46,537 nucleotides of DNA from a virus. Taxonomy: Duplodnaviria; Heunggongvirae; Uroviricota; Caudoviricetes. How positions within the stretch are numbered: the first letter of the stretch is position 1; every line of letters starts with the position of its first letter. Below the pieces are notes generated by a model, which ran no database searches, was not told the DNA's origin, and saw only the letters and a list, made by a program, of their open reading frames with translations. The DNA lies in the IMG/VR virus record IMGVR_UViG_2563366953_000003; one strand, given 5' to 3'. Both the position numbers and the translations under genes were made by a program. Positions 24,280 to 46,537 of the stretch are shown piece by piece.

Positions 24280-24300
24280 TTGCAAGCATTATACGCAAAC
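24280..24300 (-). promoter_or_regulatory. Candidate late promoter (pR'-like) -10 element
   Basis: Minus-strand TTTGCGTATAATGC with a TATAAT hexamer overlapping the Q-like stop codon, about 70 nt upstream of the terminator hairpin. Confidence 0.35.
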
Positions 24301-24960
24301 GTCGTCCAAATGGTGCTGATAATGATGCAAAGTTGCAAGAAGTGCCATTTCATCAAGTGCTCTCACCGTCTCTTTCATTCCTACCCAGTGCGGGGAGTAT
24401 GTTTCGCACCAGGTGGAACGAGAAACAGACAACATTCCAGCTAGCGCAGATCCAGCCATCTCCTTAAAGTCCTCGCGTTTATTTGCTGCTGCGACCCCCT
24501 GCACAGACAACCACACCAGCGAAAGCAGGCGCTTGACTACTTTTCTCTGAGTTGACGCGGGGATGTTTGCTTTATAGCGATTCCAGACAGCCTCACAAAT
24601 GGCGGTTTGGTGCTTGAACGCAAGGTCACCACCGTAGCAATAGCGCAACCACGCCTGCTGGCTAACGTCGAGCGAGTTCACGGCGCGGCGCCACGATGAA
24701 TCAGCGAATTCAAAATCATTCATCGGCGGCGCGGGACGACGTCTGCTGAAACTTTCCAGGGCATAAACTGGCGTAACCAGAGCATCAACGGTCCGGTCCT
24801 CCAGCTGCACACGGTGAATATGTTTGCGTGGGTATGCGTTTTTGTCTGCTGGCGGGTGCTCACATAATGCTTCCAGTTGCCCCTTAGAACCGCCAGACAA
24901 ATCCCGCAATGCAGCGCGCAGTTTTATGCGGGTATATTCCAATAAATACTCGTTACTCAT
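24289..24960 (-). CDS. Putative late antiterminator (Q-like)
   Basis: 223-aa ORF directly upstream of the pR'/tR' signature and lysis genes. Not similar to lambda Q itself; the call is by position. Confidence 0.45.
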   Translation of the reverse strand: MSNEYLLEYTRIKLRAALRDLSGGSKGQLEALCEHPPADKNAYPRKHIHRVQLEDRTVDALVTPVYALESFSRRRPAPPMNDFEFADSSWRRAVNSLDVSQQAWLRYCYGGDLAFKHQTAICEAVWNRYKANIPASTQRKVVKRLLSLVWLSVQGVAAANKREDFKEMAGSALAGMLSVSRSTWCETYSPHWVGMKETVRALDEMALLATLHHYQHHLDDVCV

Positions 24961-27848: not shown

Positions 27849-28337
27849 ATGGCTACCAACCCAAGAGAGCACGCCCGGCGAGTGCTGGACACGTTCTGGT
27901 GCGGGCGTGGTTTCCCTGTTGATCCAGCGAAAATTGCTCACGACATGGGATTAGATGTTTTTATTACCGATCTTCCTGGGAAAGTTTCTGGCGCACTGAT
28001 TAAACAAAAAGATCAAGATCCAGCGATCTTTCTAAACAGTGATGACAACAAAGTTCGTCAACGTTTTTCATGTGGGCATGAGTTGGGGCATTACATCGCC
28101 CGGCAAGCATCGCATAGCGATGAATATGAGTACGTTGATTTACGTGGCGAAACCGCAAGCGCCGGAACGCATCCTGATGAAATTTTTGCGAACAAGTTCG
28201 CAGCAGAACTTCTGATGCCGGTTGATGAGGTCAGAAAACTACACGCTGACGGCCAACCAAGTTATATAATGGCGCATTATTTTGGCGTATCTGACGATGC
28301 GATGACTTATCGTTTAAAGAACTTGAGGTTGGGGTAA
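27849..28337 (+). CDS. ImmA/IrrE-family zinc metallopeptidase (M78-like)
   Basis: 162 aa with HEXXH motif (SCGHELGHYI) in the typical ImmA context; GGAGG RBS 6 nt upstream; opposite strand to flanking phage genes. Confidence 0.7.
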   Translation: MATNPREHARRVLDTFWCGRGFPVDPAKIAHDMGLDVFITDLPGKVSGALIKQKDQDPAIFLNSDDNKVRQRFSCGHELGHYIARQASHSDEYEYVDLRGETASAGTHPDEIFANKFAAELLMPVDEVRKLHADGQPSYIMAHYFGVSDDAMTYRLKNLRLG

Positions 28338-28346
28338 CGCTTTAGA

Positions 28347-28952
28347 ATGCCATCGGATGACGATTTTAACAGCCGTTTCAAACAGGAAGTTGCACGCCGA
28401 CTGAAGGATTCCCTCAACCTACACCGTCAGTTAGCAGAAGAGGTTGAGCCGGAGGAGGATGAAACTCCGGTTCAGTCTCCTGATGAAACTTCACCTCAGC
28501 CAAAGATTTCGCACGCCCCCAAAAAACCGTCTGTCCGTATTCACGGAATAGCCAGAAAAAGAGCTGCCGAAGCTCGCAAAATGGCTGTAGCTGCGTCAAT
28601 CAAAAGAATTCCAACTGCTACACTATCTCAACAAGTCACCCGTACTGAGAGTAAAATCTTGACCGAGTTCACATCAGTGAAACAGGTGAATTCACTTGAT
28701 ACTGAGCATGAGCGCAAACAACTCAACAACAAAGATTTTGAAGCTGAAATCGATCTAAAAAAACGCTATGGCAAATGGTTCCTGATTATCCTTGCTTGCC
28801 AGCTTTTAATAATGAATGGTGTATTTTTTGCCACTGGTGCTGAATGGCTTGTATTTAAAGACTTAACGCTCCAGTTGTACATGGGCGGTACTTTGACAGA
28901 GGTATTCGGCCTCGTGCTGGTCGTGACAAAATACCTTTTTAAACGCAAGTAA
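28347..28952 (+). CDS. Membrane protein: charged low-complexity N-terminal region, two C-terminal TM helices
   Basis: 201 aa, 9 nt downstream of the ImmA-like gene (operon). Hydrophobic segments WFLIILACQLLIMNGVFFATGA and LTEVFGLVLVVTKYLF. Confidence 0.5.
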   Translation: MPSDDDFNSRFKQEVARRLKDSLNLHRQLAEEVEPEEDETPVQSPDETSPQPKISHAPKKPSVRIHGIARKRAAEARKMAVAASIKRIPTATLSQQVTRTESKILTEFTSVKQVNSLDTEHERKQLNNKDFEAEIDLKKRYGKWFLIILACQLLIMNGVFFATGAEWLVFKDLTLQLYMGGTLTEVFGLVLVVTKYLFKRK

Positions 28953-28977: not shown

Positions 28978-29010
28978 AGGCCCTGATCAAAGGGCCTTGA
29001 TAAATTAGCT
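28978..29010 (+). terminator. Weak terminator-like hairpin after the ImmA-membrane operon
   Basis: AGGCCCT-GATCAA-AGGGCCT followed by an interrupted T-tract. Confidence 0.3.
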
Positions 29011-29554
29011 GTGCGTTGAAAACAGATAGTTATTCCCATTAGTTCCAACGTAATACACATCAAAAAAATCACCATTCTTTTGCTCTAACGTCAACACCTA
29101 CCCTTAAAAGAATAATTCTCTAAGAATGAGAGAATGTTGTGTGTATTAGATAAGATATGAGCTGACACATCTATGGCGTGGAGCCGAATTTAATTTGACA
29201 GTCCACTTTGTGCCAGGAACGGACCTTAAGAAACTATCCGTAATCTTCAGGCCGATTTGTATGTCTATACCTTACAGAACTGCCAGGAGTTATTGATATT
29301 TGATAGTCGGTGAATAGCTGGCGACAATCCCCCCATATATTATATAGTAAAGATAAATTACAACTAAAAAATCATAAAAAATATCATCCATGCCTGTATA
29401 GTTTTTTAGAAGGGCTGTTTCATATGAAATGAATGCCAAAAAAATTTAGATCATGTTTTTATTTCCACATCTTTTGAAGATTTTATTTTCAATATTATCT
29501 ATCTCTTTCCTCACCCATGAATTTTCTCCAGCAGAGATAAATTAAAAAATCTCA

Positions 29555-30907
29555 CTACGCATCTATTTCGGCATAGAACATTCGCAAAATAAATTTTCTA
29601 AAGTGCTGGTGGGATTTAAGGAAATTGACGCCTAAGTATGGCATGTCTCCATGAAGAGGGTGGTTTTCCAATCCGTTATTCTTACAAAAATCATAATCTA
29701 ATTTAAGAATGTCAGTATAGAGATGTCGTATTAAACCTGTAGACCTAATAGCGAAGTTATTACAGAAAACATCCTCAAGTAGAGACCTTTGATAGATTTC
29801 CCAATTCATAAAGCCATATTCAACGTGGACGTATTTCCCATCTGTATTTCTAGTGGTGAGTTCAATTACCTGCTTACCTATACGATATAATTGAGAGATC
29901 CATGTACAATGTAAACCACTTAGGACATCAATATTAGCCTCATATAGTTCTCCTTCACCTAGTTTACCAATTAATTCAGATATGTGAGGAGTGTAAGAAT
30001 TTGGGTCTGGAATATCATCATAGTTGTCGTCTTCTGTGGATAAATGCTGGACACTCCCGACAGCATAAGGATTCATGCCAACTAGTACTAATGAATTCGT
30101 AAAAGGTAATGCCTGAGATAATTCAGGCCATAACTGAGAGCAATAAGTAAAACCATGAACTCCAGATTCTTCCATATACTGAGCTGCAAGGCAGGAAATG
30201 TTATCAAATTGACTAACAAATGAATGTAAAAGTTCTTCTCCTCTAGCTGCATCCCATCGCTCTGCGTCATACTCCCAGGATAATTTACAGACACTAAAAC
30301 TATCTTCTCTAAATGCAATATTTGAGAAAGTCGCTAACTCTGTTTGGTCTGGAATCCATAATTCAAGTTTAAGAGAGGTAATATCAAGAGGATCAGAGAA
30401 TGTTGGAATTAAAGTAATGATATCCCTATTGTCAAATATTAAACTTTGGATGACAGCATCACGTGCTATTCTGGTTTCCATTGGTGATATTAAAATATAC
30501 ACACTGTCATTTTTCGTCATGGATGGAAATAATGTTGTCATATGGTTTGAATATGCTAACAATTCAGTGAATGCTTGCCTTTCAGTTTGTTCACTTTTTT
30601 TAAGCTCTATGACAGCAAGCCCAGTATCATCACAGAATATAGCCAAAAAATCGGCTCTAATTGTTGAGTTTGAATTTTGTTCTAAAGGAACTTCGCAGCC
30701 GATAAATTCCAGTCCATAAAGCTTAGAGTGAAGATTGGATAGTTTACTATTTATTCTGTTTTTTATTAGCAGTTGTGCTGTTACATCAGAGAGATCTTCG
30801 TTGAATTCAAGTACTTCAAGACCTGCAGGTTCAATAAGCAGTTCGGGAAAATTGTTCCTATTTTCCCATATGTAATTTTGTATTTCCTTTTCTGTGAATT
30901 TAATCAT
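29555..30907 (-). CDS. Hypothetical protein with N-terminal PD-(D/E)xK-like nuclease signature (AT-rich island cargo)
   Basis: 450 aa; IRADFLAIFCDDTGLAVIELKKSEQ has the D...(D/E)xK pattern; strongly AT-rich codon usage unlike the flanking phage genes. Confidence 0.5.
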   Translation of the reverse strand: MIKFTEKEIQNYIWENRNNFPELLIEPAGLEVLEFNEDLSDVTAQLLIKNRINSKLSNLHSKLYGLEFIGCEVPLEQNSNSTIRADFLAIFCDDTGLAVIELKKSEQTERQAFTELLAYSNHMTTLFPSMTKNDSVYILISPMETRIARDAVIQSLIFDNRDIITLIPTFSDPLDITSLKLELWIPDQTELATFSNIAFREDSFSVCKLSWEYDAERWDAARGEELLHSFVSQFDNISCLAAQYMEESGVHGFTYCSQLWPELSQALPFTNSLVLVGMNPYAVGSVQHLSTEDDNYDDIPDPNSYTPHISELIGKLGEGELYEANIDVLSGLHCTWISQLYRIGKQVIELTTRNTDGKYVHVEYGFMNWEIYQRSLLEDVFCNNFAIRSTGLIRHLYTDILKLDYDFCKNNGLENHPLHGDMPYLGVNFLKSHQHFRKFILRMFYAEIDA

Positions 30908-31440
30908 TAATCAACCCTTATTATTACTTATATAATTGCCACCATCTTGATGGTTATAAAATTATGTACAATTAATTATATTTTTTAAAGTTACGGCCTT
31001 CAGTGTTCCCTAATGTACTGTTTCATATGTAATGATATCTATACTGTCTCATCTAGCAAGGTTACAAACAAAATTTTTCTTCCGGAAATGTGATCATGGC
31101 GATAAATCAACATGAGAGTTTATCTACATTGTACATAGTTAAAGCATAAGCAGGTGTGAGTAAGAAACTAGAGCATACTGAAGATTCGCTTGCTCACTGG
31201 AATTACACAATTTTACTGAGTGGATGGCGTTGCATCGACCCGTTGAACTCACAGCCATGAGCGGACATGTTTTACAGCGGAATAAATTCAGCATAGTTAG
31301 TGGATTTACACGGAGGATTAGTTTTTGAGAAATCTTGATAAAATTGTAGAGCTTGTTAATATGAAAACAAGAAATTAAACTAACAGTCAAATAAAGAAGC
31401 TCAAACACATCCCCTACTTAATTGAAAAGGATTATTAGCT

Positions 31441-32340
31441 ATGATTGCCCCACTTATTAGTAACTTACAGAAAGATATTGCGCTACTTCAGCTTTATATC
31501 GAACAACGCAAACAGACTGGCTTTCATGACATGGAAAGAATGATTGAGTCATTGACCATTTATATGTTTCGCGCACTGAAAATGGGGGAACTGGAAAACA
31601 TGAATCAGATTAAAGTTAACTTTCCCGCCATTGATTTAGCTGACAATAAAAACATGATAGCAGTTCAAGTTACAACGAAAGCAACCCCGGCAAAAATTAA
31701 AAAAACAATCGCAGCCTTTGAAAAAGAAAATAAATCAGGAAAGAGTCTAAAAGACATATACCCTTTTTTATATATTTTTGGGTTTTGTAAAAGCTCAAAA
31801 TGCTCAGTTCCAAGTTATTGTAAAGTAATCGACCCCAGCTATTTTGTAAATGAACTTTGCGATAAAGCAGATGAAAATATGATCCTTGATATGCTTGATG
31901 CCATTCATCGCCATCAGGATTATACATTATTATCGCCATGGGATGATAGAGATTCACTCGAAATAATACTCAATGTTATTAATCGCAATGCTATTAAACA
32001 CAGGATGAGTTGCGAAGGAAGCATATCTGATATGCTTGCCGGTTTAAAAGAAATTAACGAAATAATTACAAAAGGTACAATCCAACGTAAGCAACGTTCA
32101 AAATCGATATCTGATTTCAAGGATCAAAGCATGGTTAAATTCCTGAGAGGTGTAATGGATGATCTGTCTGTTATTCAAGCCATAGTGAACAAATCAAAAG
32201 TTAACCAAAGTGATATGGTTTGTATTAGCTCTGAAGATATGATTAACATTGATAATTTAAAAGATAAAATTGCAAACGATTCATCAGAGATTGCAAGGCT
32301 AAATAATATTGATATAATACTAAAAATTGTTGAATTATAA
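31441..32340 (+). CDS. Hypothetical protein (AT-rich island cargo)
   Basis: 299 aa, AT-rich, divergent from the 450-aa gene across a roughly 530-bp AT-rich intergenic region. Confidence 0.45.
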   Translation: MIAPLISNLQKDIALLQLYIEQRKQTGFHDMERMIESLTIYMFRALKMGELENMNQIKVNFPAIDLADNKNMIAVQVTTKATPAKIKKTIAAFEKENKSGKSLKDIYPFLYIFGFCKSSKCSVPSYCKVIDPSYFVNELCDKADENMILDMLDAIHRHQDYTLLSPWDDRDSLEIILNVINRNAIKHRMSCEGSISDMLAGLKEINEIITKGTIQRKQRSKSISDFKDQSMVKFLRGVMDDLSVIQAIVNKSKVNQSDMVCISSEDMINIDNLKDKIANDSSEIARLNNIDIILKIVEL

Positions 32341-32667
32341 GTAGCGATTTAATAATAACAAATAATAAACAGCAGGCTTCATTGAATAATATTTATTTGG
32401 AGCCTCTTTATTGTTTATCGACTTTATTTCTTCACTTATACCTGTCCTGTTGAAGAAGACCGTTATGTACAAGAAGCTGTTAACATAAGTGAGCATCATT
32501 ATCTATGATTAGGAAAAACATGGAAAAGTTTGTACTGAATTTTTCCAACGTTTTGACAAAAGTCTGTAATCCTGCAGTAACTTGATGAGGTGGGGCGTGT
32601 TGCCCCTACCCCAGCGAGTTAATAAGTAATAAGAAAATGGCACCCTCTAATATTATTTTTAAATTTA

Positions 32668-33333
32668 CTAATTATGTTTATTTTTACCAACAACCACATA
32701 TGAACTGCCAGCTTTGCTCCATGACTTTATTACTGCTAAATTGTTATCTAAGCAAATTTTACTTACAATATTCTCATCCAATAAGCCATAATAGAAAGCA
32801 TTGCGAGAGTTTTGGTATATATATCCATGCAAATGTTTAATTCCAGTCTCATACTTTTTGAAATAAGAGCTTTTGTATTGATTAACAATAATTGCTTCAC
32901 CATCATTTTTTAATAATCTCCCAATCTCATTGATGATTTTGTAAATTGTTGATTTACATGGAATTGCGGAAAGCACGTTTGCGCAAAGTATGAAATCATA
33001 ATTATCTTTTATTTTATCTATACTTTCAAAAGGGACAACATTAGCATTTTTATAATTATTAGCCACATACTCTGGAATTGTGGTTTGTACGCCTCTGATA
33101 ATTTGCACTCTTTCTAACTGTTTTCTGGAATCTAAAAATGTCACAGCTTCAAATTTATTTACTAATTGTTCTGAATATCTAAGCTTTCCACATCCGAAAT
33201 CAAGGGCTATGCCATTTTTAACAGAATTTTCAATATAGTTACAGAGATAGTTAGATGGCATAGTATGCGGTTTTGCTGCATTTTCTGAACGTATAGTCAT
33301 TCCATTTATTTTGTAATTCAAAACTAACCTCAT
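32668..33333 (-). CDS. Class I SAM-dependent methyltransferase (small-molecule/RNA type, not an obvious DNA MTase)
   Basis: 221 aa; motif I LDFGCGKL, acidic post-I VTFLD, motif II FDFILCANVL, motif III LLKNDGEAIIV; no DPPY/NPPY-type motif. Start ATG abuts the upstream stop (TAAATG). Confidence 0.65.
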   Translation of the reverse strand: MRLVLNYKINGMTIRSENAAKPHTMPSNYLCNYIENSVKNGIALDFGCGKLRYSEQLVNKFEAVTFLDSRKQLERVQIIRGVQTTIPEYVANNYKNANVVPFESIDKIKDNYDFILCANVLSAIPCKSTIYKIINEIGRLLKNDGEAIIVNQYKSSYFKKYETGIKHLHGYIYQNSRNAFYYGLLDENIVSKICLDNNLAVIKSWSKAGSSYVVVGKNKHN

Positions 33334-34041
33334 TTAAAAAATACTGTTATTATTAAAAAATTCCTTTATCTTATCATCAGGTATTTGTCTGACTTGGCCT
33401 TCAGTTCTGGGTTTAACGGATGCAATAAAAATAAGAAAATTAAAGACAACAATAAAAATAACCCACAACCAAAGATTTTTTAAAGAACCGGTTACAGAGA
33501 GTAAATGGGTTATTTTAGCAAAACTTATTACTAAAACAGTAATAAATGCAATCACAGTATGTTCAAAGAAAACCCAAAAGTAATAAACCTTATTCCAGAA
33601 GAGCTCAACATAATGTTTATCTTTTAACTCATTAACTTCTGGGTAATACAGTTTGTTCATTACTTTGGAGGATTCATCACTAGTTAATTTTCTTGTAATG
33701 CCTGCAACTTGCGCCAATGGTTTAACAATTAAGTAATTATCCCATGCTTTTCTTATTCCAAGAATTTTTGCCACGTTATTATGTAGATCTAAAGCCCCAC
33801 TAATCACAGACCAAAAAATTGAGAATGCAATTGGTAATATGCCGAATGTTAATATCCACTTAATAAATTCTTCGTAGTCTTTGATTGGTGGAATGTACTT
33901 GGCATTAATTCCAACCAATGGTATGTAGCCATAAATAACCAATGATAGGTAAAATATAAATGTAGTAATAAAAGTTGCCTTATGGAGCATGGGTAACATT
34001 TCATTATAATTCTTTGGCGGTTCTAACATTTTACTCTCCAA
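33334..34041 (-). CDS. Polytopic membrane protein (co-operonic with the methyltransferase)
   Basis: 235 aa with about 4-5 hydrophobic helices; AT-rich. Confidence 0.5.
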   Translation of the reverse strand: MESKMLEPPKNYNEMLPMLHKATFITTFIFYLSLVIYGYIPLVGINAKYIPPIKDYEEFIKWILTFGILPIAFSIFWSVISGALDLHNNVAKILGIRKAWDNYLIVKPLAQVAGITRKLTSDESSKVMNKLYYPEVNELKDKHYVELFWNKVYYFWVFFEHTVIAFITVLVISFAKITHLLSVTGSLKNLWLWVIFIVVFNFLIFIASVKPRTEGQVRQIPDDKIKEFFNNNSIF

Positions 34042-34408
34042 ACATTCAGAAAACGTTAGTTTTATATAATTGCACGATTTTACTAACGCACTTAAAGTTT
34101 AAATACTACTAGTCTTTTTATTTAACACTGCAATTTTATCTAAATCTTATTGATTGATCTAGTCCTCGAAGAAGCCTGCCATACATATATCTTTTCTGAC
34201 TGCATCCACTTTTATGTCTGTCACATCCACACTAGCTCCTGTAATATTTTAAATACCTCAAATCCGTCATCAGTACCGACGCTTAAATGTTCGATCCTCA
34301 CTCACTGCGGACCCTCAGCTCAGCCAGATAGTCCGCTTTGTGACAAAAGTGGAAGTAGCTAACAAGTATCCTAAGCGCAAATAGAGTATTTCCGCCCCAA
34401 ACAACCTG

Positions 34409-36778: not shown

Positions 36779-38170
36779 TTAAAATGGGTCCGTATTAAAG
36801 TTTTTGTTTGAATACCGTTTTTCACGTTTTCTCGGTTGCTCTGCCTCCTTCTGGATGCGTAATTTTTCGCGTGCTACGTGTTGATCAATTGGCAGGAAAT
36901 GCCCATTCCGGAATTCCTGATAAATAATTTCACCTGCCCCGCCAGAACGGTTTTTACCGATAATCACCTCGGCGATACCCTTTGCAGGTGAATCAGGTGT
37001 GTAAACTTCATCGCGGTATAAAAACAAAATGCTGTCAGCGTCCTGCTCAACACTGCCGGAATCGCGCAGGTCCGACATCACCGGGCGACGCTGGCCAGCA
37101 GGTCGAGAATCCACCTGGCGGGAAAGCTGGCTAAGAGCAAAAACAGGGGTATGCAGACGCATGGCCATAGTCTTCATGTTGCGGGAGATATGCCCGACAG
37201 CGAGATCGTGGCGCTCGGCCTTCGGTTTTTTGATCAGGCCCATGTAATCAACACCAATCAACTTCAGGTGCGGATAACGGCGTTTATGAGTCTCTGCAAT
37301 GGCGCGGATCTGCTCAATCGTCAAATCAGTGGCATCAACAATCCAGATATCGCGATCCTGCATGATTGCAAGCGCGGCGGTTAATCTGGTCAAATCCTCA
37401 TCGTCCATTTCTTTTGGATTACGCAGACGCGACGTTGACATATTCCCAGCCCCGGCAACGGTACGTTCAACAATCTGCTGAGCGCCCATTTCCATGCTGA
37501 AAAACAGTGCGCCGCCGCCATCTGCGGTAACGCCATCGATAATCTTCAGGGTAAATTCCGTTTTCCCCATGCCTGGACGACCGGCAACCACAACAAGGTC
37601 GGTCATGTTGATACCGCCCAGGGCGACATCCAGATCCTCGACTCCGGTTTTCAGCATCATTTCCTGCGCGTCACCAGACATCCGTTTATCAACGGTGTCA
37701 ATGTAGAGCGGTAACAGCTCTTTGATGTGTACCGGCTGGACTGTGCCGGTAGCGGCGCTCATATCCAGCACCTGAGCAACATGAGATTCAATAACCTCAT
37801 CACGCTGACTCTGGTTTACAGCGTTACGGATACCATCCGCGCCAGATTGCAACAATGCCGCCATTTTGCGGCTCCGCCATGCCCGCACCATTTTCCCGGC
37901 ATAGCCTTTCAGATTCGGTACCGTTGCCGGGATCCGGGATATTTGAGACAGATCCGCAAGGCTGGAACCGCCCAGCGCTTCGCTGATAAACAACATGTCG
38001 ATCATGCCGTTCGCCAGTGCCTGCTTTTTGATTTCGCTGAAAGCGCGACGGTGAAACACGATGCTGAAGGCTTCCTCCGGAGTAGTGGCAATCACATCAA
38101 ACGCGTCAGGCGTCGCACCACCGTTAATCAGACCAGCGAGAACGATCGCTTCCAGTTCTTCTGGATTCAT
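36779..38170 (-). CDS. Replicative DNA helicase (DnaB family, phage P-protein equivalent)
   Basis: 463 aa; Walker A GRPGMGKT, DYMGL and other DnaB-like motifs; start overlaps the O-like stop. Confidence 0.9.
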   Translation of the reverse strand: MNPEELEAIVLAGLINGGATPDAFDVIATTPEEAFSIVFHRRAFSEIKKQALANGMIDMLFISEALGGSSLADLSQISRIPATVPNLKGYAGKMVRAWRSRKMAALLQSGADGIRNAVNQSQRDEVIESHVAQVLDMSAATGTVQPVHIKELLPLYIDTVDKRMSGDAQEMMLKTGVEDLDVALGGINMTDLVVVAGRPGMGKTEFTLKIIDGVTADGGGALFFSMEMGAQQIVERTVAGAGNMSTSRLRNPKEMDDEDLTRLTAALAIMQDRDIWIVDATDLTIEQIRAIAETHKRRYPHLKLIGVDYMGLIKKPKAERHDLAVGHISRNMKTMAMRLHTPVFALSQLSRQVDSRPAGQRRPVMSDLRDSGSVEQDADSILFLYRDEVYTPDSPAKGIAEVIIGKNRSGGAGEIIYQEFRNGHFLPIDQHVAREKLRIQKEAEQPRKREKRYSNKNFNTDPF

Positions 38171-42122: not shown

Positions 42123-44336
42123 ATGACCATTTTTAACGGCTTGTTAGAAGCGAAAAAAGGCGCGCTCAAAAACGGCGCGATCCCGGCGCTGGCCATCGCC
42201 ATCGACGCCCCTAACAAAAAAGTTGCCGAGAACATCATCATCGGCAAATTGTGGGAAGCCTACCCTGACCACGGCGACAACTATTTCAAACCTAAAATCT
42301 GGGAAGATGCCCTGGGCCAACCGCGCCCAGGCGTTGGTGAGTTTGATGAGACGTTCGCCACAGAACACAGTTTTGATGGCGAAAAATGGGTAGTTAACAC
42401 CACCGTTGTAGATAGCGGTTCAGCAGATATCGCACAGGTTAACGACCTGATGAAACTGCCGGCTCGTGAACGATTCGCCGCCGTTCTGCTGTTCAGCCAC
42501 GACGCCAACGAAGTCGACAGTGAATTGCTTGCGCAGACGCGTGAATACCTGGAGATGCTCGACAACAGTGATACTGACAGTGAGGATGAGGTTGACGCGT
42601 TTAACCGCATCGTTCTTGATGCCATGGTGGCGTGTAAGCCCATCGAGTACATGCATATTGCTGGATTGAATAATCTGGTACATGCAATTTTGGCAAGTTG
42701 CGATACCCAGGAACAAAACCCGACCAGTTGGACTATCTCCAAATTTATAAAAAAATGGGTAGAGAATCCCGGTAAACGCGATGAAATGCTGCCGGAGGTA
42801 AAACCGTCCGCACGTCCTTACAAACAGACTCACGCTACACTGGATCGTGAAATTGCCTGCGCTCTGTTACCCGTTGGCCCGGAAAAAATCTCCCCCAGCG
42901 TCCTGAAAGCGGCAGACGAAATAATCAGCCAGGATCGGGAGGATTTTAAACGCTGGTCAATGGCCTTGCGCACAACGGATCAGATCCTTGCCTATGACCG
43001 CGCATCAGTATTCGGTGTTATTCAGAGCGCCCCCGCAAAAGACACGTACCACTTCCCGCAATCCCTGCGCAGTCACATCGACAACTGGCTGCAAGCTAAC
43101 GGGCAGCGTGATGCAAATGCTGTTGAAGAGAAGTCAAAGGAAGCAGCACCAAAGGATGATGTAAAAGTCACCAACCACGGCGGCGGGCGATTCTCAATTG
43201 ATGGGATGATGTCAGAAACACCCTCAAATCAGGGTGAAAAAAGCGAAGCTGCAAATGCTGGAGAACGTAGTTTGCAGCAGTTGCGTGAGCAGTTTATCAC
43301 GCCTCGCCATGTGTATGACGTACCTGAAAATAACGCCGTCTCACAGAGGGAACCTGCAGCTATTACCCCGGCAGAAGAGACTCCTCCACAAGAAAAACTT
43401 AGCGAGCAGGTAAAGGATCTGGTGCAGAACGTTGACGCGCTGGTTGAGCCGCCCCATGCCGAGGAAAAAACTGCATCAATTCGCATGGAGCATTATCTGT
43501 CAGCAATGAATGATGACCAGAGCAAAGCAAATTTGGCTATCTGGAATCGCGTTCAGCGGACCGATCCTGCGTATGTCACACATAATGATTACGGTGCAGG
43601 ACTGCACTCCATACGCGCACAATATATTTTGATGCGTGCGACTGAAGTGCTGGGAATGGAAGGCATTGGTTGGGGAGTTGAAATCAAGGAGGAGCGAGTG
43701 GATCGCGGTGTGCCATTACTTGAACCTATACAGGATCAGACAGGGAAAATTATTGGACAAAAACCTGTCAGGGATGCTGACGGTTCCCTGTTCTGCCTGT
43801 CAGTACACACCATCCGGATAGATCTCTGGTACATCTGGAACGGAGTGAAAGGATTTATTCCGTCATATGGCCACACGGATTACATATCAAAAAATAACAA
43901 AGGGGCACTGGTAATGGAAAAAGAGACCTCCAAAAAGTCTCTTACTGATGCCACCGTCAAAGCACTATCTCATCTGGGATTTGCGGCAGATGTTTATATG
44001 GATATGCATAACGATAGTGCCTACACCGCCGAGCTGAATACAGAATACAGTATTAAGAAGGCAAGCGAGAAAGCAGAGGATGCTACCCGACTGCGTGAAG
44101 AACTGGATGAACGACTCTCAGGTGTTGCCAAAACACTGGCTGCAGCCGTAACCCCCAATGAAGTTAATAAAGTCTATGGCCTTATTGCGCGGGAAGTAGA
44201 AGTTCACCGCAAGGCCGCAGAATCCAAAGGTGATAAGGAGTATTCAACTTATCTTGGTTCGCGCCTGCGCCGTTTGAATGAAATCAAAACCGAACGCCTC
44301 ACCGCCCTCACCGCAGCACAGGAGCAAACAGCATGA
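42123..44336 (+). CDS. Large early protein; C-terminal region resembles an Erf/Rad52-type single-strand annealing domain (tentative)
   Basis: 737 aa; acidic and low-complexity central linker; C-terminal GAGLHSIRAQYILMRATEVLG...KKSLTDATVKALSHLGFAADVYMD loosely parallels P22 Erf motifs. The N-terminal roughly 400 aa are unassigned. Confidence 0.35.
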   Translation: MTIFNGLLEAKKGALKNGAIPALAIAIDAPNKKVAENIIIGKLWEAYPDHGDNYFKPKIWEDALGQPRPGVGEFDETFATEHSFDGEKWVVNTTVVDSGSADIAQVNDLMKLPARERFAAVLLFSHDANEVDSELLAQTREYLEMLDNSDTDSEDEVDAFNRIVLDAMVACKPIEYMHIAGLNNLVHAILASCDTQEQNPTSWTISKFIKKWVENPGKRDEMLPEVKPSARPYKQTHATLDREIACALLPVGPEKISPSVLKAADEIISQDREDFKRWSMALRTTDQILAYDRASVFGVIQSAPAKDTYHFPQSLRSHIDNWLQANGQRDANAVEEKSKEAAPKDDVKVTNHGGGRFSIDGMMSETPSNQGEKSEAANAGERSLQQLREQFITPRHVYDVPENNAVSQREPAAITPAEETPPQEKLSEQVKDLVQNVDALVEPPHAEEKTASIRMEHYLSAMNDDQSKANLAIWNRVQRTDPAYVTHNDYGAGLHSIRAQYILMRATEVLGMEGIGWGVEIKEERVDRGVPLLEPIQDQTGKIIGQKPVRDADGSLFCLSVHTIRIDLWYIWNGVKGFIPSYGHTDYISKNNKGALVMEKETSKKSLTDATVKALSHLGFAADVYMDMHNDSAYTAELNTEYSIKKASEKAEDATRLREELDERLSGVAKTLAAAVTPNEVNKVYGLIAREVEVHRKAAESKGDKEYSTYLGSRLRRLNEIKTERLTALTAAQEQTA

Positions 44337-45328: not shown

Positions 45329-45509
45329 ACTGACCGGCTACCAGTTCCCGTCAAAACAATGCGGCGCCCTGACCCGTGCCGGGATCTCTTATGTAAAACG
45401 CCGCGATGGGCGACCTCGCGTCACATGGACGCATGTAAACGCTGCGCTGTCCGGAGCAAGGTCCGTGCAGATTGCCGAAGAAGAACAACCAAATTTTGAT
45501 GCAATCTGA
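45294..45509 (+). CDS. Excisionase-like DNA-binding protein
   Basis: 71 aa; ELVELTGYQFPSKQCGALTRAGISYVKRRDGRPRV pattern; immediately upstream of and overlapping int. Confidence 0.5.
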   Translation: MNDLLNDEELVELTGYQFPSKQCGALTRAGISYVKRRDGRPRVTWTHVNAALSGARSVQIAEEEQPNFDAI

Positions 45510-46537
45510 TGAGCAGAACACGAAAAAACGCGGAAGATAATAAGCTGCCACCCCGCGTTTATAAAAACAAATACAGCTATTATTTCAAACCAACGCCCCG
45601 AGAGTGTATTACGCTGGGTAAAATTAATGATCTGTCAATTGCTCAGGTATGGGTGAAATACGAAGAGATCCTGAATGATGCTATTGATGTCATGACGTTC
45701 AGTAAACTCTGGAACAAATTTCTCAACAGCACCTACTATCTGGAACTCGGTCAGCGTACACAAAAGGATTATCTGCAGCACCAGAAGAAATTACTCGCAG
45801 CGTTCGGGAAAATGAAAGCCGACAACATAAAACCTGCTCACGTGCGGCTGTATATGGACAAGCGGGGGCTGAAAAGCAAAACACAGGCGAATCATGAAAA
45901 AGCCAGTATGTCGCGAGTATTCCGCTGGGGATACGAACGCGGATATGTAAAAGGGAATCCATGCCAGGGCGTCAGTAAATTTTCCCTCAAGGCACGCGAC
46001 TACTATTTCACGGACGAGGAATATATCGCAATTTATCAGGAGGCATCTCCCGTTTTACAGTGCGCGATGGAGATCGCCTATCTGTGCGCCACGCGGATCG
46101 GCGATATACGAAAGCTGACGTGGGATCAGGTAATGAGTAAGGGGTTGTTTATCCAACAGGGTAAGACTGGTAAAAAGCAGATCAAACAGTATTCAGAGCG
46201 ACTGATGTTCGCACTTGAGCAGGCGAAATCGTTGGGAGGACAACATTTCGTGGTCTGTAACAAATATGGTGGGCAATACAGCTATACCGGATTTAACGAT
46301 ATCTGGCGTAAAGCCAGGGCGGCGGCAAGTGAAAAACTGGGCTACCCGATTACGGGAACGTTTCACGATTTAAAAGCGAAGGGGATCTCAGACTACGACG
46401 GAAGCAGTAAAGAAAAGCAGTTGTTCTCTGGTCACAAAACAGAGGCGCAAGTGCTGACGTATGATCGCAAACCCTCAGTAACTCCGACTCTGGATATTCC
46501 GGTGCTGGATGTCACAGTTCTGAGCAGAAACCCGTGA
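45509..46537 (+). CDS. int: Tyrosine integrase (lambda Int family)
   Basis: 342 aa; C-terminal catalytic region HDLKAKG...GHKTEAQVLTYDRK parallels lambda Int (GHKSDTMASQYRDDRG). Stop codon at the window end. Confidence 0.85.
   Translation: MSRTRKNAEDNKLPPRVYKNKYSYYFKPTPRECITLGKINDLSIAQVWVKYEEILNDAIDVMTFSKLWNKFLNSTYYLELGQRTQKDYLQHQKKLLAAFGKMKADNIKPAHVRLYMDKRGLKSKTQANHEKASMSRVFRWGYERGYVKGNPCQGVSKFSLKARDYYFTDEEYIAIYQEASPVLQCAMEIAYLCATRIGDIRKLTWDQVMSKGLFIQQGKTGKKQIKQYSERLMFALEQAKSLGGQHFVVCNKYGGQYSYTGFNDIWRKARAAASEKLGYPITGTFHDLKAKGISDYDGSSKEKQLFSGHKTEAQVLTYDRKPSVTPTLDIPVLDVTVLSRNP

Follow-up and report, generated by a model that had tools for sequence, protein, structure and literature searches.

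A prophage-borne homologue of Escherichia coli ymfE-ymfD: a candidate anti-phage membrane protein with a conserved methyltransferase partner

Introduction

Why would a prophage carry, side by side, a gene for a polytopic membrane protein and a gene for a methyltransferase that does not look like a DNA methyltransferase? The question is raised by a locus in a 46,537-nucleotide stretch of Caudoviricetes DNA (IMG/VR record IMGVR_UViG_2563366953_000003; the whole stretch is hereafter the window). By sequence comparison, the two genes are a homologue of ymfE-ymfD, from the e14 prophage of Escherichia coli K-12, and the membrane protein of the K-12 pair has been reported to act against phages. What is new here is that a methyltransferase partner accompanies the YmfE family in every lineage checked.

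YmfE was named Kunado and described as an anti-phage membrane protein in a preprint of 11 September 2026 (bioRxiv 10.64898/2026.09.05.749240). In that work, the Keio deletion of ymfE in an hns deletion strain restored the infectivity of T5-like phages, ymfE with its own promoter on a plasmid protected a strain lacking all nine cryptic prophages, and a screen of e14 deletions gave ymfE and lit as the sole hits. The affected phages use different receptors and adsorption was not blocked; the authors propose a block of DNA injection, and adsorption was the only step tested. The preprint presents YmfE as a system of one gene; its main text contains neither the word ymfD nor the word methyltransferase. 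YmfD itself was still listed as uncharacterised in 2025 (PMC12096079). The two papers that mention ymfD (eLife 2019 and NAR 2025) contain no functional information on it: a point mutation in the gene was neutral, and the knockout by itself did not account for N6-methyladenosine (m6A) in mRNA.

Results

The window pair and ymfE-ymfD of e14

A first-pass annotation of the window had proposed that a polytopic membrane protein and a class I S-adenosylmethionine (SAM)-dependent methyltransferase are encoded together in a two-gene operon. Both open reading frames (ORFs) are indeed present, on the minus strand, with the membrane-protein gene 5′ and the methyltransferase gene 3′ (Table 1). Both are real genes: at the 30.5% GC of the pair (47.5% for the whole window), the chance of an open frame is ~1e-8 over 221 codons and ~6e-9 over 231 codons, and each product has hundreds of homologues. 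The same annotation had taken the pairing to be undescribed, and in this it was mistaken, since the pair corresponds to ymfE-ymfD of e14 and YmfE has been published as Kunado. Both proteins match their K-12 counterparts over their full length, YmfE with 60% identity (over 231 residues, with shared invariant residues) and YmfD with 66%; the DNA of the pair is 68% identical over 98% of the two-gene query.

The two loci share gene order, strand and the abutment of the genes (in K-12 the junction is a TGA followed directly by ATG), and the encoded proteins are of similar length (234 and 221 residues in K-12, 231 and 221 in the window). Both pairs are AT-rich and prophage-borne, and in both another defence-type gene is adjacent. 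They differ in backbone and insertion site: the window pair lies in the replication-Q region of a lambdoid prophage, whereas in e14 the pair adjoins lit at the attachment-site end. The neighbour is thus Lit in e14 and a protein with a SMEK domain in the window. With 40% divergence between the window and K-12 alleles, their phage range may also differ.

Of 5426 complete E. coli genomes examined with a sensitive DNA search, 434 carry the two-gene unit, and in 433 of these the match spans most of the query. The copies fall into three allele classes, with at least 99% identity to the window pair (5 genomes), ~85-87% identity (146 genomes) and 60-80% identity (283 genomes); the last class includes K-12, and its records that were listed carry ymfE and ymfD annotation. 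Overall, the pair is known from prophages, chromosomal islands and integron cassettes, and plasmids contribute four records only, two of which are 15-kb E. coli records that resemble the e14 element in size. The membrane family is large, with 571 representatives at 50% clustering in an exhaustive profile search.

Linkage of the two genes across lineages

To follow the pair into other genomes, a check that the first-pass annotation had itself proposed, we used profile searches to scan 50 fetched loci, many of them from near-identical E. coli prophages, and sampled distant relatives separately. In each of the 49 loci that include downstream DNA, the methyltransferase gene comes directly after the membrane gene. 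Look-ups that started from methyltransferase homologues (41-47% identity) were equally uniform: in five of five (Neptuniibacter, Colwellia, Halomonas, the Vibrio cholerae superintegron and Marinobacter), the gene immediately upstream encodes a protein of 209-233 residues that is always a YmfE homologue. A profile search brought in more remote members of the membrane family, with identities to the window protein of just 17-27%, and in all six successful look-ups from such distant homologues the methyltransferase gene was found immediately downstream, in contexts that include Amphritea, a Chloroflexota genome and two metagenomic lineages. Two Pseudomonas genomes likewise have the methyltransferase gene right after the membrane gene. 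The linkage was therefore kept in every lineage examined. This is not the picture of a housekeeping enzyme beside an unrelated transporter without conserved linkage, the outcome that the first-pass annotation had set against its own proposal.

The two genes are also closely spaced, with -20 to +14 nt between them in every lineage but V. cholerae (53 nt), and in the distant clade their reading frames overlap by 17-20 nt. Across 13 lineages, the pairwise identities of one protein correlate with those of the other (r 0.74, Mantel permutation p ~2e-4). The membrane partner diverges faster, with 17-39% identity to the window protein as against 33-47% for the methyltransferase. Furthermore, the two domains occur in a natural single-chain fusion of 459 residues (P0276), in which the membrane domain precedes the methyltransferase domain; an assembly error is not the explanation, because the protein is identical on four contigs from four samples. 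In a further metagenomic protein (P0220), a TIR_2 domain is found at the N terminus of a YmfE-like domain, and the gene downstream encodes a methyltransferase homologue (E 1.7e-32). Together, these data are evidence that the YmfE- and YmfD-type genes form one module of two proteins.

Several loci carry unusual forms of the membrane gene. The fusion gene lies at 1259-2638, 289-1668 and 88-1467 of contigs L058, L059 and L060, and a small GIY-YIG nuclease gene is adjacent in three of the four contigs. The TIR_2 protein is encoded at 2893-3903 of L053 and 71-1081 of L054; its membrane domain appears shortened, and in L054 the last helices are found on a separate ORF of 79 residues. In L048 (4738-5943) the membrane gene is split by a ~1.2-kb insert with two overlapping transposase ORFs of the IS3-family type, and it is also split in L050 (4859-5985, with a ~1.1-kb insert) and in E. 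coli TW14425 (H60); the methyltransferase gene is intact in all three. Given these split genes, the membrane protein may be costly to its host.

The gene junction and the start of the methyltransferase

The first-pass annotation had inferred translational coupling from the sequence TAAATG, in which the stop codon of the membrane gene abuts an ATG without any spacer. We set this junction against those of 18 other lineages. Where the window has the abutting ATG, the 146-genome E. coli variant reads ACG, and other lineages read AGG or GGA. By contrast, the enterobacterial copies keep a GAGG/GGAG box right after the stop and a TTG six bases further on (33321 in the window), and this TTG aligns with the initiator methionine of the family consensus MxYxIxG. 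On this alignment, the abutting ATG is probably not the conserved start of the methyltransferase, which may instead begin 12 nt past the stop and be 217 residues long, rather than the 221 residues obtained with the ATG. The operon structure and the tight coupling hold with either start. Thus the abutment in the window and the conserved tight spacing or overlap stand, whereas the literal TAAATG does not define the family.

The membrane protein

The maximal ORF of the membrane protein (33334-34041) opens at a TTG, which is unlikely to serve as the start because it overlaps a GGAGAG box of the Shine-Dalgarno type. The start is likely to be the ATG at 34029, which yields 231 residues and is the equivalent of the RefSeq start in a 99.9% identical E. 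coli prophage. Hydropathy predicts four transmembrane helices (TM1-TM4; residues ~18-40, 58-80, 148-170 and 183-205), and an AlphaFold2 model of the protein is all-helical, with a mean predicted local distance difference test score (pLDDT) of 91.3. TM2 and TM3 are separated by a conserved, lysine/arginine-rich helical loop of 67 residues (81-147) on the cytoplasmic side. Within this loop H83, R93 and P104 are invariant in the family, as are W152 and E156 at the cytoplasmic end of TM3, and all five residues group at the cytoplasmic face, at the inner leaflet. The orientation would follow from the fusion proteins, since the N-terminal TIR domain points to a cytoplasmic N terminus and the C-terminal methyltransferase domain to a cytoplasmic C terminus; this topology also matches the charge bias of the protein.

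Neither the window protein nor 52 family members gave a meaningful match in Pfam, NCBIfam, PHROGs or PADLOC, and none of these collections has a model for the YmfE-like membrane family. In PADLOC-DB 2.0.0 (2023) the window protein had no match, and the 52 family members had only stray ones (E >= 0.0018). The structural model has no meaningful neighbour.

The methyltransferase

The methyltransferase has the expected motifs of a class I enzyme, with LDFGCGKL as motif I, an acidic residue at the end of strand 2 (FLDS) and CANVLSAIP as motif IV. Three SAM-binding residues, D45, G47 and D68, never vary in an alignment of 48 family methyltransferases, and a fourth, G49, is almost invariant. The family also has invariant motifs of its own, namely (S/T)ENAAKP, LDFGCGKLRY, (V/L)DS..QL.R.Q, C(A/T)NVLSAIPC, NQ(H/Y)(R/K)SSYFKK and SYYG, and the window protein carries the subfamily signatures SENAAKP, NQYKSSYFKK and FYYG. 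An AlphaFold2 model shows a seven-stranded Rossmann-type fold (pLDDT 90.3).

Profile searches place the enzyme in class I generally: its Pfam matches, weak to moderate, are to Methyltransf_11, Methyltransf_12 and TehB (24 bits, over the SAM-binding core). None of the specific labels that these searches brought up could be retained. The NCBIfam models for TehB gave 29.3, 25.6 and 16.2 bits against cut-offs of 218, 303 and 219.5, and the scores for BioC, PmtA and UbiG were likewise far under the family cut-offs. The only PADLOC-DB match is a weak one to mad2 (E 2e-4), over the SAM-binding core. A profile of the methyltransferase family searched against the sequences in the PDB gave borderline matches only (Rickettsia PKMT2, E 0.006), so that, by sequence, no solved structure is close. 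Foldseek neighbours of the model (TM-score ~0.6) include Trm9, nicotinamide N-methyltransferase (NNMT), DnrK, DhpI and NodS.

That the enzyme is unlikely to be a DNA amino-methyltransferase had been concluded earlier from the missing DPPY/NPPY motif, and our analysis agrees: the broader pattern [DNS]PP[YFW] is absent, the protein contains no PP dipeptide at all, and there is no DNA methyltransferase among the 50 best Foldseek matches listed. The operon also lacks a nuclease partner. We therefore rejected an N6-adenine or N4-cytosine enzyme of the restriction-modification type, as its catalytic motif is absent and no such match is listed. From its sequence and its model, the enzyme most resembles small-molecule and tRNA methyltransferases, and does not appear to be a DNA methyltransferase. 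That the enzyme diverges more slowly than its partner and keeps many polar residues invariant suggests that it acts on a conserved substrate, and not only on the fast-evolving membrane protein.

Prophage setting and neighbouring genes

The window is a lambdoid prophage with structural genes, replication genes, a Q antiterminator gene and an integrase gene. The pair is housed in an AT-rich defence-like island (~29000-34300) between the replication genes and Q, in keeping with the setting that the first-pass annotation had described. Features of the locus are collected in Table 1.

Table 1. Coordinates of the two genes, their control regions and other features in the window
Feature	Position	Strand	Basis or remarks
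Membrane-protein gene, 231 residues, inner membrane, homologue of E. coli K-12 e14 YmfE (Kunado)	33334..34029	-	ORF, homology
Class I SAM-dependent methyltransferase gene, homologue of e14 YmfD	32668..33333	-	ORF, Pfam, homology
Intercistronic junction	33319..33336	-	TAA 33336-33334; ATG 33333-33331; GAGG box 33331-33328; conserved TTG 33321-33319
Shine-Dalgarno-like GGAGAG	34034..34039	-	Ahead of ATG 34029
Upstream intergenic region, 367 bp	34042..34408	-	Separates the membrane-protein gene from that of the ORF6N anti-repressor
GC-rich hairpin GAGGTGGGGC-gtgtt-GCCCCTACCCC	32587..32613	.	Sequence, RNA fold; no U-run
SMEK-domain protein, stand-alone, 299 residues	31441-32340	+	N-terminal SMEK: Pfam 2.8e-23, NCBIfam 1.1e-31
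450-residue protein	29555-30907	-	Weak HSDR_N 0.0027, PADLOC REase_II 0.0022, PDC-S11 0.027; phrog_30092 4.6e-11
Q antiterminator gene	24289-24960
DnaB-type helicase gene	36779-38170
Integrase gene	45509-46537

The promoter of the operon presumably lies in the intergenic region upstream of the membrane gene. One sigma-70-like site with 10 of 12 matches is found there (34412-34385), although our promoter scan counted no more such sites near the pair than in shuffled sequence. Downstream, the methyltransferase and SMEK genes converge on an otherwise AT-rich spacer of 327 bp that contains a GC-rich hairpin, and the RNA fold of 98 nt around this hairpin has an energy of -25.5 kcal/mol (z -2.4). 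The hairpin may be a terminator common to both genes; an intrinsic terminator scan, which performed no better than on shuffled sequence, did not call it, as it has no U-run.

Known defence systems lie within a few kb of the pair in several genomes: Lit in K-12, Hachiman in Pseudomonas and Amphritea, and Lamassu in another Pseudomonas. Further neighbours are a NucC-like nuclease in Halomonas and a TIR protein on a metagenomic contig, and elsewhere toxin-antitoxin modules, recombinases and insertion sequences are found near the pair. In V. cholerae the pair stands among the cassettes of the superintegron. Hachiman (HamA and HamB) is directly beside the pair in both of its cases, upstream in a Pseudomonas locus (L009, 371-3828) and downstream in Amphritea (L051, 7519-10992); with two cases only, this could be plain clustering in defence islands or a recurrent association. 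The Colwellia pair is located in a ~9.5-kb island with two serine recombinase genes, and this island appears to split a Mg-chelatase (comM-like) gene (L013, 458-1120 and 10683-11585).

Within the window island, the SMEK protein also matches the PADLOC profile of a restriction endonuclease associated with short Argonautes (5.9e-20). Its gene accompanies the pair only in close enterobacterial lineages, and we treat it as a separate island gene that may by itself be a candidate for single-gene defence. The 450-residue protein is beside the pair only in lineages that are at least 96% identical (the window, L001, L023 and L046). Its match to PDC-S11, a system renamed Madara in bioRxiv 10.64898/2026.09.05.749240, is not strong enough for the protein to be counted as a member. 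At the edge of the island (27849-28952, plus strand), an M78 metallopeptidase gene of the ImmA/IrrE type (162 residues, Pfam 7.7e-18) is followed after 9 nt by a gene for a 201-residue protein without a Pfam match; both run opposite to the late genes and may be a regulatory or defence pair. A 737-residue protein without a Pfam match is encoded at 42123-44336 (plus strand) in the early-left region, upstream of a Gp157-like gene and the integrase gene.

Discussion

Based on these observations, we favor, with a probability of roughly 60%, the reading that the window pair is a prophage copy of a YmfE/YmfD anti-phage cassette that works in the following way. The membrane protein would protect against T5-like phages, as extrapolated from its 60% identity to K-12 YmfE, and would do so once the phage has adsorbed, most likely through a block of genome entry or of an early membrane step. 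The methyltransferase gene would be co-transcribed with the membrane gene, with its translation tightly coupled. The enzyme is predicted to be cytoplasmic and catalytically competent, with a substrate other than DNA, and may dock on the conserved cytoplasmic face of the membrane protein, where the 67-residue loop and the invariant His/Arg/Glu cluster meet the inner leaflet. Its role would be accessory, whether to tune or reset the membrane protein, to extend the range of protection or to modify a conserved membrane-proximal molecule; it should not be the core anti-T5 activity, because K-12 ymfE alone sufficed. The cassette would be a moron in the AT-rich island between the replication genes and Q. 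By analogy with e14, H-NS probably silences it in a resting lysogen, and its GC content of 30.5%, against 47.5% for the window, would fit an H-NS target.

Several points weigh against this proposal. The defence role of the window allele rests on 60% identity to K-12 YmfE, and the methyltransferase may be dispensable for the one known phenotype, as ymfE alone protected in the preprint. Moreover, the methyltransferase evolves more slowly than the membrane protein, which argues against the fast-evolving partner as its sole substrate. Neither gene was found by megablast or tblastn in 50,697 isolated phage genomes, and neither structure nor profile comparison linked the membrane protein to any exclusion protein that has been characterised.

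We also entertain, more tentatively, a bolder form of the proposal, in which Kunado would not be a single-gene exclusion protein. It would form the membrane part of a two-component system, ancient and obligate, with the SAM methyltransferase as its second part; the substrate of the enzyme would not be a nucleic acid, and its activity would set the range, the activation or the reset of the defence. The enzyme would then act at the cytoplasmic face, on the membrane protein itself, on a lipid or on a molecule delivered by the phage. To our knowledge, it is not yet established that anti-phage immunity can work through the methylation of non-DNA targets.

The main rival to an exclusion cassette is an abortive-infection or toxin-regulator module. 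Here infection would trigger the membrane protein to damage the membrane, the methyltransferase would hold this effector in check or act as the phage sensor, and protection would stem from the death or arrest of infected cells instead of from exclusion. Transmembrane effectors are common in abortive-infection systems, and the lineage with an N-terminal TIR_2 domain on the membrane protein has the look of a sensor-effector arrangement. The loci in which the membrane gene is split and the methyltransferase gene intact (L048, with its IS3-family insert, L050 and TW14425) hint at a cost of the membrane protein, and toxin-antitoxin modules often adjoin the pair. However, cells without ymfD that carried only ymfE, on multicopy pBR322, were viable and protected (bioRxiv 10.64898/2026.09.05.749240), so the methyltransferase is not an essential antitoxin. 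The authors of that work favor exclusion, though only adsorption was tested. The methyltransferase is, in addition, the more conserved of the two partners, which would be unusual for an antitoxin. We therefore consider abortive infection unlikely, and the published result with pBR322 argues against a type II toxin-antitoxin pair in particular.

Could the convergent SMEK gene supply a third functional component, such as a nuclease effector? It adjoins the pair in the window, in most IMG/VR loci and in the sampled locus of the 146-genome 85% variant, which has a Qin-like backbone. SMEK_N is a nuclease-type domain tied to short Argonaute systems (PMC10810196), in line with the PADLOC match of the window protein. 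On the other hand, no SMEK gene stands beside the pair in K-12 e14, in L025, L026, L043 or L047, or in any non-enterobacterial lineage; the gene is convergent, with 327 bp and a hairpin in between; and K-12 YmfE works without it. A three-gene system thus seems improbable, and SMEK as an obligate third component was discarded given its absence outside close enterobacterial relatives.

We give similarly little credence to a role outside defence, in which the methyltransferase would modify a small molecule or membrane lipid, for example in TehB-like detoxification or to methylate phospholipids or quinones, and the membrane protein would handle or transport the compound. Its closest structures are indeed small-molecule methyltransferases (NNMT, DnrK, DhpI and NodS), there are weak profile matches to TehB, BioC and PmtA, and the invariant polar residues of the membrane protein group at the cytoplasmic leaflet. 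Nevertheless, the scores are far under the cut-offs (29 bits against 218 for TehB), the membrane protein matches no transporter in fold or profile, the contexts are prophages, integron cassettes and defence islands rather than metabolic operons, and the K-12 homologue has a direct anti-phage phenotype. Finally, the notion that the two genes are unrelated and only happen to be neighbours in an AT-rich island, for which the apparent dispensability of the methyltransferase in the sole published phenotype might speak, is effectively refuted by an adjacency that is universal at 17-40% protein identity and across distant bacterial groups, by overlapping frames in distant lineages, by correlated divergence and by the natural fusion protein.

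An exclusion cassette of the YmfE/YmfD type invites comparison with the post-adsorption exclusion proteins T4 Imm, P22 SieA and HK97 gp15, which are encoded by phages or prophages, reside in the inner membrane and protect against heterologous phages. Protection after adsorption is the common feature, reported in the YmfE family for K-12 YmfE. The window protein, however, has no sequence or fold similarity to these three, is larger and has a conserved cytoplasmic domain, and its family is also found outside prophages, in integron cassettes and chromosomal defence islands. We know of no enzyme partner for Imm, SieA or gp15, whereas the YmfE family is always partnered. A mechanistic analogy for such a partnership may be CheR, a soluble class I SAM methyltransferase that tunes chemoreceptors through their cytoplasmic helical domain; it shares no homology with YmfD beyond the Rossmann fold and is not among the 50 best structural neighbours listed. 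The same puzzle is posed by Toutatis (tutA-tutB), a two-gene defence cassette of the V. cholerae chromosomal integron, in which a putative methyltransferase always co-occurs and the partner gene alone is necessary and sufficient (bioRxiv 10.1101/2024.07.02.601686). YmfE/YmfD too is found as a V. cholerae integron cassette; the likeness is one of analogy only, and identity with tutAB is ruled out on the published description of tutA.

The defence role of the YmfE family was published, weeks before this analysis, as that of a single gene, and our comparative data argue for a two-protein unit. Some 8% of the complete E. coli genomes have the module in one of three diverged forms, whose phage ranges may differ, and tools for defence annotation should count both genes as one system. 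For this y-gene pair of K-12, the finding also frames a testable question: what the substrate of YmfD is, and when YmfD is needed.

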